A stretch of DNA of 64,000 nucleotides from an uncultured Acidimicrobiales bacterium (GCA_951813325.1 OX638350.1:1901954-1965953); one strand, 5' to 3'. Counted from the first letter of the stretch, positions 2,666 to 38,784 are shown. Made by a program: numbers and translations. The notes: generated from the sequence alone by a model not told the origin.

Positions 2666-3037
2666 TCAGCACCCTCCGAGTTCGGCGGCTGCGGAATGCC
2701 CGAAGCCGCCGAGCTCGACGGCAACCGCCCCCGTGGCCGGGGTGAGGTTGGTGAACACACGGGGCTGCCAGGCAAAGCTGGCGTCCACCCGAAGTACAGG
2801 ACCGCCTCCGGTTTGGTCGACGCAACCGGACAGCTTCGTCCCGTCAATTCGGATGGCATTCACCGTGCTTCGGTCACACCCCTGGCTGCCGCAACCGTCG
2901 ATGAACTTTGCCGCGGCCCTCTCGGCCCGGTCAGCCGCCAGATTGCTGTTGGTGATCAACTCGGCGTGGTCACCCAACGAGCCGGCCGTCACGGCCACCG
3001 CCAGACCCAGAGACAGCAGAACGATGGCGGTGTGCAT
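2666..3037 (-). CDS. TadE/TadG-like pilus assembly protein (N-terminal hydrophobic segment)
   Basis: Small protein with N-terminal TM segment immediately downstream of the other tadE-like genes in the same operon. Confidence 0.45.
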   Translation of the reverse strand: MHTAIVLLSLGLAVAVTAGSLGDHAELITNSNLAADRAERAAAKFIDGCGSQGCDRSTVNAIRIDGTKLSGCVDQTGGGPVLRVDASFAWQPRVFTNLTPATGAVAVELGGFGHSAAAELGGC

Positions 3038-35065: not shown

Positions 35066-35734
35066 CTACGCCGAGTCGGCCAGCCCCAGCGCCCGGGCGA
35101 ACACTTCGTCGATCATGTCAGGGGTGAGCCGACCGGTGAACGTGTTCTGCTGGCTCACGTGGTACGAGCACACCACTGTGCGCCCGCCGGGTGCGGCTGC
35201 CTCCAGGCCATGGGCGAACTTCGGCCGGGGCCGCATCCCCAGCTCGGCGGCCACCGCCCCGTAGCCGATGGCCCCCAGAGCCACAAACACCCGGGCCCTG
35301 GTCAACAGGGCCAGCTCCCGCACCAAAAACGGGCGGCAGGCATCCCGCTCGGCTGGGGTCGGCTTGTTCTGGGGCGGGGCGCATCGCACCGGGGCGGTGA
35401 TGTACACATCGTTCAGTACCAGGCCGTCGTCCACATCGGTGGCCGTGGACTGGTTGGCCAGGCCCGTCCGGTGCAGCGAGGCATACAGGAAGTCGCCCGA
35501 CCGGTCGCCGGTGAACATGCGCCCGGTGCGGTTGGCCCCGTGGGCGGCCGGGGCCAGGCCCACCACCACGATGCGGGCCCCGGGGTCGCCGAACCCCGGC
35601 ACCGGCCGGCCCCAGTATGTCCAGTCCCGGTATGCTGCCCGCTTGACCGCGGCCACCTCCTCCCGCCAGGCCACCAGCCGGGGGCAGGCCCGACAGCCGA
35701 TAACATCGGCGGCCAACTCGTCAAATGAATCCAT
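35066..35734 (-). CDS. Uracil-DNA glycosylase family 5 (UdgB)
   Basis: 'GLAPAAHGANRTGRMFTGD' family-5 motif; start at the internal ATG. Confidence 0.75.
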   Translation of the reverse strand: MDSFDELAADVIGCRACPRLVAWREEVAAVKRAAYRDWTYWGRPVPGFGDPGARIVVVGLAPAAHGANRTGRMFTGDRSGDFLYASLHRTGLANQSTATDVDDGLVLNDVYITAPVRCAPPQNKPTPAERDACRPFLVRELALLTRARVFVALGAIGYGAVAAELGMRPRPKFAHGLEAAAPGGRTVVCSYHVSQQNTFTGRLTPDMIDEVFARALGLADSA

Positions 35735-35764
35735 CGCGGGCAAGCTAGAGGACGAGCGAAAGAG

Positions 35765-36430
35765 TTGCCTGCGAGTAAGAGAGCGATGGCTGGAAATCCC
35801 CGCAAACCCACCATGGTGTTGTTCGTGCGCCACGGTCAGACTCCCACCACCGGCGCGGTGCTGCCCGGGCGGGCGCCGGGGCTGCACCTCAGCGACCGGG
35901 GCCGGGAGCAGGCCGACCAGGCGGCGGCCCGCATCGCCGCTTTGGGCGCGGAGCGCATCGGAGCGGTGTACGCGTCTCCCATGGAGCGGGCCCGGGAGAC
36001 CGCCGCACCCATCGCCCGGGCCGTGGGACGGCGTGTGCGGGTGCTGGACAGCCTCAACGAGTGCGATTTCGGACAATGGACCGGACGCCGTCTCAGCGAC
36101 CTGCGCCGCCGCCGCGATTGGCGGCAGGTGCAACGCAGCCCCAGCAGCTTCCGCTTCCCCGATGGTGAGTCGTTCGCAGAAATGCAGACCAGGATTACCG
36201 GCGCGGCGCAGTCTCTGACCGCACGCCATCCCGGCTCAACGGTGGTGGCAGTGTCGCATGCCGACACCATCAAGGCCGCGGTGTCGCACGCCTCGGGCGC
36301 CCACTTGGACATGTTCCAGCGGATCGCGGTGTCGCCCTGCTCGATCACCGCCATCCTCTACAGCGTCGAAGGTCCGCTTGTGCTGGCCGTCAACAGCACC
36401 TCTGACCTCAAATCCCTGGTTCCATCATGA
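35765..36430 (+). CDS. Histidine phosphatase family protein (phosphoglycerate mutase-like)
   Basis: 'LVRHGQT' catalytic motif. Confidence 0.7.
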   Translation: MPASKRAMAGNPRKPTMVLFVRHGQTPTTGAVLPGRAPGLHLSDRGREQADQAAARIAALGAERIGAVYASPMERARETAAPIARAVGRRVRVLDSLNECDFGQWTGRRLSDLRRRRDWRQVQRSPSSFRFPDGESFAEMQTRITGAAQSLTARHPGSTVVAVSHADTIKAAVSHASGAHLDMFQRIAVSPCSITAILYSVEGPLVLAVNSTSDLKSLVPS

Positions 36431-36918
36431 GCGCCTCCTACGACCTCAACGACCTCGAGCACTTCACGGTGGGAACCATCGGCCCGACCGGCCAACGGGT
36501 TTTCTATCTCCAGGCAGGGGTCACCGGAACGCTGGTGTCGCTGAAGCTGGAGAAGCAGCAGGTGGCCGCGCTGGCCGAGTACCTGGCTGGGGCGCTCGGG
36601 GAGATCACCGACGATCCTGATGCCATCGTTCCTGAAGCCGATATCGGGCTGATCGAGCCGGTGGAAGCCGAGTGGACCGTGGGCGACATTGGCATCGGCT
36701 ACGACGCAGACGCCGATCTGATGCTGATCATGGCAACCGAGGCGCCGTCCCAAGACGACCCCGATGATCCAGCCACCGCCCGGTTCCACATCACCCGGGG
36801 CCAGGTTGCCGGGTTCGTGGCCCGGGCCCGAGAGGTAGTGGCCGCCGGTCGGCCGCCGTGCCGCTACTGCGGAGCCCCGCTCAACGACGACGGCACATGG
36901 TGCCCTTGCTCCAATTAG
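36427..36918 (+). CDS. DUF3090 domain protein
   Basis: Conserved actinobacterial family with C-terminal CxxC...CPC. Confidence 0.65.
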   Translation: MSASYDLNDLEHFTVGTIGPTGQRVFYLQAGVTGTLVSLKLEKQQVAALAEYLAGALGEITDDPDAIVPEADIGLIEPVEAEWTVGDIGIGYDADADLMLIMATEAPSQDDPDDPATARFHITRGQVAGFVARAREVVAAGRPPCRYCGAPLNDDGTWCPCSN

Positions 36919-36952
36919 CCGCGTGAGCACCTCCGAGCCCGACACCGGATCG

Positions 36953-37088
36953 CCGATACGAGCCATTCCCATGGTCGTTCCCCTGAAAACGTGAGCGCGA
37001 AAATGCCCCGAGGCGAGTCACCGATACGAGCCATTCCCATGGTCCTTCCCCTGAAAGCATGAGCGCGAAAGTGCCCCGAGGCGAGTCC
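36953..37088. repeat. 68-bp tandem duplication (2 copies, ~94% identical) spanning the start of the downstream gene
   Basis: ccgatacgagccattcccatggtc[g/c]ttcccctgaaa[ac/gc][g/a]tgagcgcgaaa[a/g]tgccccgaggcgagtc[a/c] repeated head-to-tail. Confidence 0.85.
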
Positions 37089-37814
37089 CCGTTCCGGGAG
37101 CGGCCCCCGCTTTGCGACAATCTGGCCGTCGATCTGCTGCAAGCAGGAGAGCTGGACGTACTGGGGAGGATGCCGTGGAGCTCCAATATGACTTTCTTGG
37201 TCGACGTTCACTCCCCCGACGCTTCCACCGTCCAGGGGGTGTACAAGCCAGTGCGGGGCGAGCGGCCCCTTTGGGACTTCCCAGCCGGGCTGCACAAGCG
37301 GGAGATCGCCGCCTTCGAGCTGTCGCTCGCGTTGGGCTGGAACCTGGTCCCGCCCACCGTCCTTCGGGATGGACCGCTGGGCGAGGGGTCGGTACAGCTC
37401 TACGTCCCCACCGACTACGACGAGCACTACTTCACCTTGCGGGAGGAGCCCGTCCACCATCGGTGGTTTCAGCGGCTGTGCGCGTTCGACTTCATCATCA
37501 ACAGCACCGACCGCAAGGGCGGCCACATCCTGCTCGGCGACGACGGGAGGCTCTACGCTATCGACAACGGGTTGTCATTCCACTGCGAGTTCAAGTTGCG
37601 CACCGTGATCTGGGAGTGGGCCGGCAATCGCCTGCCCGATGACCTGGCCGCCGACGTAGACCGACTGTTGGATGAGGGCCTGCCTCCCGGCGTGGCCAAC
37701 ATGCTGTCTTTGCTGGAACGAGACGCCCTGTTGACCCGGGCCGGCGCCCTGGTGGGCGAAGGCCGCTTCCCCACCGACCCCAGCGGCCGCCGCCACCCCT
37801 GGCCCTTGGTCTGA
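37059..37814 (+). CDS. SCO1664-family (PI3/4-kinase-like fold) protein
   Basis: 'IINSTDRKGGHILL...YAIDNGLSF' kinase-like motifs; conserved cluster with DUF3090 and the histidine phosphatase. Confidence 0.6.
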   Translation: MSAKVPRGESPFRERPPLCDNLAVDLLQAGELDVLGRMPWSSNMTFLVDVHSPDASTVQGVYKPVRGERPLWDFPAGLHKREIAAFELSLALGWNLVPPTVLRDGPLGEGSVQLYVPTDYDEHYFTLREEPVHHRWFQRLCAFDFIINSTDRKGGHILLGDDGRLYAIDNGLSFHCEFKLRTVIWEWAGNRLPDDLAADVDRLLDEGLPPGVANMLSLLERDALLTRAGALVGEGRFPTDPSGRRHPWPLV

Positions 37815-37821
37815 GACCGGC

Positions 37822-38784
37822 CTAGCTCCGGGCTTGCAGCGCCTCGATCAGCTTGGGGAGCACCTTGTGGACGTCGCCCACCACACCAAGATCGGCGATT
37901 CCGAAGATGGGGGCCTCGGCATCCTTGTTGATGGCAATGATGTTCTTGGAGCCCTTCATGCCCACCATGTGCTGGGTGGCTCCGGAGATGCCGCACGCCA
38001 CATAGACGTCGGGCTTGACCACCTTGCCGGTCTGGCCCACCTGGTGGGAGTAGGGAACCCAGCCCGCATCCACGATGGCTCGCGACGCGCCGGCCGCACC
38101 CCTGAGGAGTCTGGCCAAGTCCTCGATCATCGAGTACTTCCCGGCCTCGCCCAAGCCTCGCCCGCCGGAGACCACCACCCCGGCCTCGTCCAACTTGGGA
38201 CCGCTGGACTCCTCGGCGAAGCGGTCCACCACCCGGGCCGCCCCGGTTGCCCCCAAATCGGGCACCGGCAGGGCCGACACCGCCGCCGGTGCCCCGCCGG
38301 ACTCCTCGGCGGCGAACGACTTGGGGCGGACCAGGAACAGGCCGGCGCCCGAACCGCTGAACCGGGTGCTGACGTTGACCGTCCCGCCGAATACCGGCTC
38401 AGTCCCCACCAACGAGCCGTTGGCCTGCTCCAGTTCGACAATGTTGGTGATGACCGGCGCGCCCAGCTTGACCGAGAGCCGCCCAGCCACGTCGCGGCCG
38501 TCGTAGGTGGTGCCGAACAGCACTGCGTCGGGAGCGGCCCCGCCCTCGAGGGCCGCGGCTATGGCTGAGGCCACCGCCGGGCCGGCCAGACCGTCGCCCA
38601 GATCACCGGTGGCGTGGACCACGGTCGCCCCGTGGGCCCCGAGCTCGGCGGCCAGCGGCTCGCCGTCTGTGCCCACCACTGCTTCCACGGTGTCGGCCAG
38701 CTCTCGGGCCCTGGTCAACAACTCGAGGCTGATCGAGGCGACCTTGCCGCCCGAGGCTTCAGCAAACACCCAAATGGTTCCCAT
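37822..38784 (-). CDS. etfA: Electron transfer flavoprotein alpha subunit
   Basis: 'MGTIWVFAE...' start plus FAD-binding C-terminal domain; internal ATG start. Confidence 0.85.

Follow-up and report, generated by a model that had tools for sequence, protein, structure and literature searches.

Tandemly duplicated gene starts between the DUF3090 and SCO1664-family genes of an Acidimicrobiia bacterium probably persist as a ribosome relay

Between its DUF3090 gene and its SCO1664-family gene, an uncultured Acidimicrobiales bacterium carries 136 nt made of two 68-nt units, which are inserted between ancestral codons 11 and 12 of the SCO1664-family gene and form a chain of mini-ORFs, each stopping on the next start codon. 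Comparison with related loci indicates that these are probably tolerated tandem duplications, filtered by selection so that a relay of termination and reinitiation into the SCO1664-family gene was kept. The window, i.e. the whole stretch of 64,000 nucleotides that was analysed (GCA_951813325.1, OX638350.1:1901954-1965953), provides the coordinates used below, and all the features of the gene cluster lie on its + strand.

The host cluster comprises three genes. The first (35786-36430, 214 aa) encodes a putative phosphomutase of the MSMEG_4193 family (His_Phos_1); it matched TIGR03848 with 211 bits when scored on a longer ORF (35765-36430), and the 214-aa call was found at the equivalent position in the conspecific contigs L149-L152. 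Its stop overlaps the start of the DUF3090 gene as ATGA (spacing -4). The DUF3090 gene (36427-36918, 163 aa; TIGR03847 with 137.6 bits, PF11290) ends with TAG at 36916-36918, and its exact protein was present on 14 contigs. The third, the SCO1664-family gene (37059-37814, 251 aa), encodes a protein which scored 252.2 bits against TIGR03843 (cut-off 172.4), with model positions 1-253 aligned to residues 27-251, and which returned no record in an exact-match look-up. As the TIGR03843 match begins at residue 27, the 11 duplicated N-terminal codons lie outside the conserved domain. Most of its close homologs, from Acidimicrobiia (Ca. Poriferisocius) and at about 87% identity, are 251 aa long and begin with M-x7-ESPFRERP; the ESPFRERP motif, conserved among orthologs, resumes in the window exactly where the second unit ends.

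The lone tandem array of this region was detected by TRF at 36953-37091 (period 68, 2.0 copies, 92% matches, 0% indels, score 243), and a repeat alignment of 36950-37017 with 37018-37085 gave 93% identity with 5/68 positions differing, which bears out the two head-to-tail 68-bp units described in the initial annotation. Two sub-patterns of the unit occurred 2 times each in the 64-kb window against 0 expected from 100 shuffles. Each unit consists of a 35-nt spacer, a new start codon and 10 codons. Unit 1 (36956-37023) has its spacer at 36956-36990 and GTG with 10 codons at 36991-37023; unit 2 (37024-37091) has its spacer at 37024-37058, followed by the ATG and 10 codons of the functional gene, the change of start codon from GTG to ATG being among its five differences from unit 1.

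ORF0 (36923-36994, 23 codons, GTG start) is composed of the ancestral N-terminus (11 codons, 36923-36955) and the 35-nt spacer read in frame, and its TGA (36992-36994) overlaps GTG 36991 as GTGA. ORF1 (36991-37062, 23 codons, GTG start) terminates with TGA at 37060-37062, which overlaps ATG 37059 as ATGA. Each truncated copy is read as a 23-codon ORF with its TGA on the next start because 68 is 2 mod 3 and the starts are of the form NTG-A. The uORF that had been proposed from GTG 36991 agrees with the ORF list and the translations in length, stop and overlap with the main ATG; the upstream ORF0 had been missed, so there are two chained uORFs and a third, older copy of the gene start. The chain runs from DUF3090 through a 4-nt gap without overlap to ORF0 (23 aa), through GTGA to ORF1 (23 aa) and through ATGA to the SCO1664 gene (251 aa). 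A systematic walk over 144 loci gave the spacings of the window as +4, -4 and -4, all of them within termination-reinitiation geometry (a 4- or 1-nt overlap, or a gap of up to about 10 nt; distance limits from PMC10666635).

Translation gave VSTSEPDTGSPIRAIPMVVPLKT as the product of ORF0 (VSTSEPDTGSP followed by IRAIPMVVPLKT, then the stop) and VSAKMPRGESPIRAIPMVLPLKA as that of ORF1 (VSAKMPRGESP followed by IRAIPMVLPLKA, then the stop). The SCO1664 gene opens with MSAKVPRGESPFRERPPL and its N-terminus reads MSAKVPRGESP followed by FRERPPL...; the N-terminal peptide predicted for a start at ATG 37059 is (M)SAKVPRGESPFR, and STSEPDTGSP belongs to the ORF0 product. The starts at 36427, 36923, 36991 and 37059 each continue into AGC (ATGAGC, GTGAGC, GTGAGC and ATGAGC, respectively), so that each of these is able to form an NTGA stop/start overlap. 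Among the copies of the SCO1664 start, ATG in place of the ancestral GTG was seen only in the last, functional copy (37059). A gene with such relic starts upstream may lead gene callers to pick wrong starts or to miss the mini-ORFs.

We compared seven of the 14 contigs with the exact DUF3090 protein, originating from ENA, JGI (PetF) and NCBI samples. The gap from the DUF3090 stop to the gene was 140 nt long in all seven, as in the window, and over 36900-37110 six of them were base-identical to the window while the seventh carried a single substitution. No copy-number polymorphism was found among the 8 assemblies of the window's population, all of which have two extra units. An assembly artefact had been named in the initial annotation, and it would be a collapsed or expanded repeat; short tandem repeats may be mis-assembled and the window is metagenomic in type, but the copies differ at 5 positions, the other assemblies agree, and a homologous one-unit version occurs in a complete-chromosome MAG (L003). 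The presence of the structure in the seven other assemblies therefore speaks against both an artefact, to which we give practically no weight, and a fresh slippage event. The contig with the single substitution (L155), compared over 36403-37926, follows the window up to about 37530 and is about 20% diverged thereafter, the break inside the 3' part of the SCO1664 gene being either a recombination breakpoint or a chimeric assembly. L155 was considered as an independent diverged strain conserving the junction and this was rejected; it is a mosaic contig and so adds no independent information.

The closest single-copy locus, L001, reads TAG-CCGC-GTGAGCACTTCC...GAGTCCCCA continued directly by TTCCGAGAA, with no insertion. 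When the junctions are compared, L001 has TAG-CCGC-GTGAGCACTTCCAAGCCCAGCACCGAGTCCCCA followed by TTCCGAGAACGG, and the window has TAG-CCGC-GTGAGCACCTCCGAGCCCGACACCGGATCGCCG followed by ATACGAG.... The segment 36923-36955 of the window (N0) is identical to the N-terminus of L001 at 25/33 positions (p=0.0005). This likeness and the L001 junction identify GTG 36923 as the ancestral SCO1664 start, 4 nt past the DUF3090 stop. The coding part of the unit (N1) is identical to the N-termini of L001 and L002 at 21/33 positions (p=0.003-0.005). The uninterrupted ancestral junction was found in L001, L080-L083 and others, and a metagenome scan for nearer relatives returned four L001-like single-copy loci and distant ones, and nothing else. 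One extra unit, 68 nt long and with the same 33+35 partition, is present in L003 (OX638344.1), where a 23-aa uORF (2933-3004) is joined by a GTGA overlap to a gene of 251 aa. Comparison of the orthologous loci for single versus double copy showed no extra unit in most relatives, one in L003 and two in the window.

The spacers of the window and L003 are identical at 21/35 positions (p=0.008). The 14/35 differing positions (0.40) equal the divergence at fourfold sites between the two (0.42), so that the uORF tail evolves at the neutral rate with its length and open frame retained; over the 12 codons of this tail there were 3 synonymous-only changes, 8 amino-acid changes and 1 unchanged codon. 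The fourfold-site difference of the window was 0.011 from the conspecific L149 and 0.25-0.31 from L002 and L001, and units 1 and 2 differ by 0.074 over all sites. As the units are 7.4% apart against a fourfold diversity of about 1% in the population, the second duplication is much older than the sampled population; this, along with the older homologous 68-nt duplication in L003, speaks against the earlier suggestion of a recent slippage event. Judged from these comparisons, the second duplication is specific to the window's lineage and younger than the split between the species, and we infer that the first was already present in the common ancestor of the window and L003, its spacer having evolved neutrally since then.

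In a protein-distance tree L001 and L002 group with the window, and L030 groups with L003. Under this topology the first duplication, if ancestral to the window, L001, L002, L003 and L030, was lost at least 2 times or was transferred by recombination. Exact loss via recombination between the repeated cores is plausible. L030, the sister of L003 without the duplication, has at about 2933-2960 an N-terminus 4 codons shorter (MTTPQSPFRE..., 247 aa), which may be the scar of an imprecise repeat deletion. The 35-nt spacer showed no similarity to the DUF3090 3' end or to codons 12-23 of the gene (p = 0.8-0.96), hence the first event is not reconstructable as a simple duplication of present-day sequence.

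Similar duplications recur in relatives at three junctions of the cluster, namely A (phosphomutase to DUF3090, ancestrally ATGA), B (DUF3090 to SCO1664) and C (downstream of SCO1664). The distance from the DUF3090 stop to the conserved GRMPWSSN anchor is 95-122 nt in most relatives and several are expanded. Apart from the 68 + 68 nt of the window (GTGA and ATGA overlaps) and the 68 nt of L003 (GTGA overlap), junction B carries 56 nt in L156 (chain of 3, 22 and 251 aa), 56 nt in L025 (no clean relay, the first copy being without a start codon), 65 nt in L026 (TGATG overlap), and 14 and 17 nt in L092/L093 (57% identical; two mini-ORFs and three TGATG overlaps). Junction A carries 38 nt x2.1 in L009/L018/L032 (about 2463-2540; uORF MSASFDLNDLEPS), 65 nt x 2.5 in L025 (2283-2445; TAATG overlaps) and 44 nt x 4.7 in L026 (2207-2412; four uORFs MKTNSTADLKALVPS, all ATGA-linked). 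The repeated sequence at junction A joins the upstream gene's last codons to the initial codons of DUF3090 and yields chains of ORFs 13-21 codons long, the units in L009, L025 and L026 being copies of the flanking gene ends. At junction C a 50-nt unit is repeated x 5.5 in L090 (2249-2521) and x 2.5 in L091 (2249-2371), with the uORF MNAACRTLRASASENEQ and ATGA overlaps, so that copy number differs between two related metagenome contigs. The copies of this 50-nt unit follow directly on the SCO1664 stop, are 100% identical and are joined by ATGA to one another and, at the end of the array, to the next gene (MNADALVSAGDLDEIL...).

The spacers of L156, L025 and L026 have no significant similarity to the spacer of the window and L003 or to each other, and the junction B duplications of these three are therefore treated as separate events. 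A single ancient origin for all junction B duplications was considered and is disfavoured by these dissimilar spacers; the duplications of L156, L025, L026 and L092/L093 at this junction apparently arose independently of that shared by the window and L003. In L156 (2419-2530), L025 (2924-3030) and L026 (2898-3010) the two copies of the core, a start with some 9 codons, match at 100% over 26-30 nt, and the other 14-26 nt of the unit are unrelated to either flank. As plain tandem duplication predicts identity over the whole period, these units do not resemble plain duplications; their identical cores could have been homogenised by gene conversion or selected, or filler DNA could have been inserted. 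Besides, junction A of L038/L145, L050, L054, L076 and L094/L095/L100 holds interposed ORFs of 4 to 75 codons with -4 overlaps and no detectable repeat, which in these distant Acidimicrobiia may be old decayed relay units.

The unit lengths at the coupled junctions (68, 68, 56, 56, 65, 14, 17, 38, 65, 44 and 50 nt) are 2 mod 3 in 11/11 cases, a pattern with p of about 5e-4 under equiprobable residues for at least 7 independent events; some of the events may share ancestry (L025/L026), which would lower this number. A length of 2 mod 3 is the arithmetic condition for the stop of an ORF (TGA/TAA) to overlap the next start in NTGA or TRATG junctions. Among the long-period arrays not assigned to coupled junctions, a set confined to periods not divisible by 3, those of 37, 52, 46 and 55 are 1 mod 3 and that of 38 is 2 mod 3; direct reading of the gene context covered one of them, the 37-nt array of L025, which is flanked by convergent genes and contains stops in every frame. 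Nearly all the expanded junctions elsewhere among the 144 loci are tiled by short ORFs with -4 or -1 overlaps, the untidy exception being junction B of L025. To judge the context of other arrays, five array listings from four loci were read directly, since stop-to-stop ORF lists gave too much noise at this GC content.

These regularities bear on whether the mini-ORFs matter at all, since the 136 nt could be an untranslated spacer, with the gene at 37059 translated independently through an internal promoter, a leaderless transcript or direct ribosome binding. Leaderless or SD-poor initiation is common in Actinobacteria, which counts for this reading. The senX3-regX3 spacers of M. tuberculosis with MIRU show promoter activity (PMC4213456), and the promoter scan used here was simple and may misfit Acidimicrobiia promoters. 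With that scan, no sigma-70-like promoter was found in 35500-38000; no SD-like 4-mer was present within 20 nt upstream of the DUF3090, ORF0, ORF1 or SCO1664 starts, a result of little weight, given that such a 4-mer occurs in only about 12% of random 15-nt windows of this sequence. The duplicated RBS/promoter segment proposed in the initial annotation is thus not borne out, as neither an SD-like 4-mer before the three starts nor a sigma-70-like site was seen, and this counts also against the untranslated spacer. Moreover, junctions indifferent to frame should not give unit lengths that are all 2 mod 3, and there would be no reason for the spacers to remain without in-frame stops. We regard an irrelevance of the mini-ORFs as improbable.

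In the favoured relay, the first 33 nt of the SCO1664 gene together with a 35-nt spacer would have been tandemly duplicated twice, the second event having simply repeated the 68-nt unit in tandem within the window's lineage. Coupling by termination-reinitiation works across overlaps or very short gaps only and is nearly lost once the gap reaches about 20-38 nt (PMC10666635), and a coupled gene can have its ribosomes 'delivered' by a short ORF upstream of it (PMC12548453). If translation of the SCO1664 gene depends on ribosomes coming from DUF3090, as we infer, the ribosomes ending DUF3090 would reinitiate 4 nt downstream at GTG 36923 and translate ORF0, its termination would lead to reinitiation at GTGA and translation of ORF1, and the ATGA overlap would then pass them to the SCO1664 gene. 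ORF0 and ORF1 would thus carry ribosomes over 136 nt which, without them, would break the coupling of the genes, and an insertion of 68 or 136 nt would be tolerated only as each unit supplies a start and readthrough to a stop on the next start. The neutral evolution of the uORF tail suggests that the ORF0 and ORF1 peptides are by-products. The likely net effect would be that SCO1664 translation is kept, perhaps at a somewhat lower level. Duplications would arise repeatedly in this lineage, with only those keeping the relay geometry persisting. Of the functions raised in the initial annotation, translational coupling is the one that the comparative data favour.

The same relay may instead be an adaptive rheostat, in which the number of units is selected, or varies, to tune the ratio of SCO1664 to DUF3090 protein; every added reinitiation step would lower the downstream output, and the array would act as a regulatory VNTR-like device. 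It would fit with the 0, 1 and 2 extra units of L001, L003 and the window, with the 5.5 and 2.5 copies of L090 and L091, with the retention of both extra units of the window undeleted to a divergence of 7.4%, and with the use of ATG rather than GTG in the last copy alone. However, the population of the window showed no copy-number polymorphism among 8 assemblies, and neutral turnover would explain just as well why gains and losses are scattered over the tree; we hold selected tuning to be rather unlikely.

A regulatory role of the peptides themselves, with ORF0 and ORF1 as arrest or attenuator leader peptides or as functional small proteins, would draw on the two nearly identical 23-aa products that would arise and on known cases of bacterial uORF control such as iraD (PMC5574718). 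The tail of the uORF, however, differs between the window and L003 at the neutral rate, the uORF peptides of the other lineages are unrelated, and neither a terminator nor an alternative hairpin was found; the scan returned no terminator-like site in 36900-37100, and the RNA fold of 36900-37120 was no better than shuffles (z = +0.81), with no stable or alternative structure. Such a role thus has little to recommend it, and attenuation, as raised earlier, finds no footing in these results. A search of Rfam at a permissive threshold placed no family at the junction, and an RNA element there was rejected on this result and the fold. The sole Rfam match, nhaA-I at 36811-36860 inside DUF3090, was sub-threshold (19 bits against a gathering value of 37, E=0.4) and is most likely due to chance. 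The class of leader-peptide attenuators and cis-regulatory RNAs was likewise set aside, the junction having no terminator, alternative structure or Rfam family.

The known repeats that come closest are the MIRU of mycobacteria, units of 40-100 bp that are arranged in tandem within operon spacers and whose internal ORFs are coupled at -4 (PMC3184786, PMC12548453), as in the 77-bp and 53-bp MIRU-VNTR units between senX3 and regX3 (Supply et al. 1997, summarised in PMC3184786, PMC4213456 and PMC12548453). Like these, the window has tandem units of 40-100 bp between co-directional operon genes of an actinobacterium, with one short ORF per unit in the orientation of the genes whose ends overlap the neighbouring stop or start (-4). 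By our own arithmetic, the MIRU lengths of 77 and 53 are 2 mod 3, as is 68 here, and the overlapping ORFs of MIRU are believed to allow such an insertion to be kept at little cost to the expression of the genes behind it. MIRU are dispersed (about 40-50 loci per genome), have a common consensus and bear signs of transposition, whereas the unit of the window was found at one locus in the DNA searched (about 2% of the genome) and units from different genomes have no consensus in common. What the window units copy in their coding part is the start of the interrupted gene itself, and the junction A units copy flanking gene ends; the host belongs to the Acidimicrobiia (sponge-associated Ca. Poriferisocius group) and not to Mycobacterium; and, unlike in MIRU-VNTR, strain copy-number variation is lacking among the 8 assemblies of the window's population, the variation being between species (0, 1 or 2) and, at junction C, between L090 and L091.

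An inserted MIRU-like mobile repeat carrying its own coupled ORF, in place of a local duplication, would account for this matching architecture, in which units lie at start codons with an internal ORF and -4 coupling (PMC12548453, PMC3184786), and for the 35-nt spacer without a detectable local source, the spacers of L156, L025 and L026 being also unrelated to their flanks. Against it stand the homology of the unit's coding part to the gene's own N-terminus (21/33, p=0.003-0.005), the junction A units plainly copied from flanking gene ends, and the units of different genomes without a common consensus. Pattern searches and blastn-short, which covered about 2% of the genome, recovered the unit at this locus alone, both in the 64-kb window and in roughly 774 kb of DNA from related loci. 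We therefore consider a mobile origin very unlikely. Since the coding part is the gene's own, there is no cross-genome consensus and the unit was not seen elsewhere in the DNA searched, membership of MIRU is not supported; the sequences rather suggest a MIRU-like relay-ORF repeat, at least partly of local origin, in Acidimicrobiia. In the literature searched we found no report of such relay repeats for Poriferisocius or Acidimicrobiia.

The junction types (GTGA, ATGA, TGATG and TAATG) are those of termination-reinitiation coupling (Huber et al. 2019, PMC6728339; PMC10666635; PMC12548453), and as in coupled gene pairs there is no SD-like motif and the ancestral pair is coupled at -1/-4 or over a few nt; a short ORF delivering ribosomes has already been proposed for coupled pairs. 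Unlike a single overlap between genes, this would be a multi-step relay of two mini-ORFs (up to four in relatives) born by tandem duplication. Regulatory uORFs such as the iraD leader ORF (PMC5574718) also terminate on or next to the main start, and translation of their main gene depends on that of the uORF, a dependence that the mini-ORFs of the window would share. While uORFs of the iraD type lie in 5' leaders, have their own ribosome-binding site and are targets of regulators, those of the window lie inside an operon, show no obvious binding site and are what is left of earlier starts of the gene itself.

Tandem arrays were also observed away from these junctions. High-identity minisatellites occur in L025 (3763-3949, 5761-5924), L026 (1333-1540, 5646-5899) and L010 (4143-4321, 5196-5957). 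The arrays of these three loci include 37 nt x5.1, 38 x4.3, 52 x4.0 and 46 x5.5 as well as multiple-of-3 arrays (24 x7.5, 36 x7.9, 78 x6.3), a richness that suggests a lineage-wide bent toward tandem-repeat expansion. In the window itself, a 42-nt x6.6 array (1778-2053, 96% identity) encodes an in-frame 14-residue repeat within a 505-aa ORF on the - strand (1097-2614), unrelated to the 68-bp units.

The single locus is a small structural variant, and the recurrent, frame-constrained pattern around it provides testable comparative evidence on coupling and on the origin of MIRU-like repeats. If the relay is true, this locus and its relatives would form a natural mutagenesis series for translational coupling, in which insertions of 14-68 nt (arrays to about 200 nt) survive only with a mini-ORF stopping on the next start, and they would lend comparative support, from uncultured bacteria, to measurements in E. 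coli and Haloferax by which termination-reinitiation depends strictly on distance, besides representing a non-mobile route to a MIRU-like architecture. More tentatively, with odds that we put on the low side, Acidimicrobiia of the Poriferisocius group and distant relatives may carry unrecognised, self-generated 'relay-ORF' minisatellites, i.e. tandem duplications of gene starts or ends, sited at translationally coupled junctions and held to unit lengths of 2 mod 3, which would hand ribosomes on from one gene to the next and could vary in copy number, as a locally born counterpart of MIRU. Such a class, if true, could show how MIRU-type repeats originate and could act as copy-number rheostats of operon stoichiometry.
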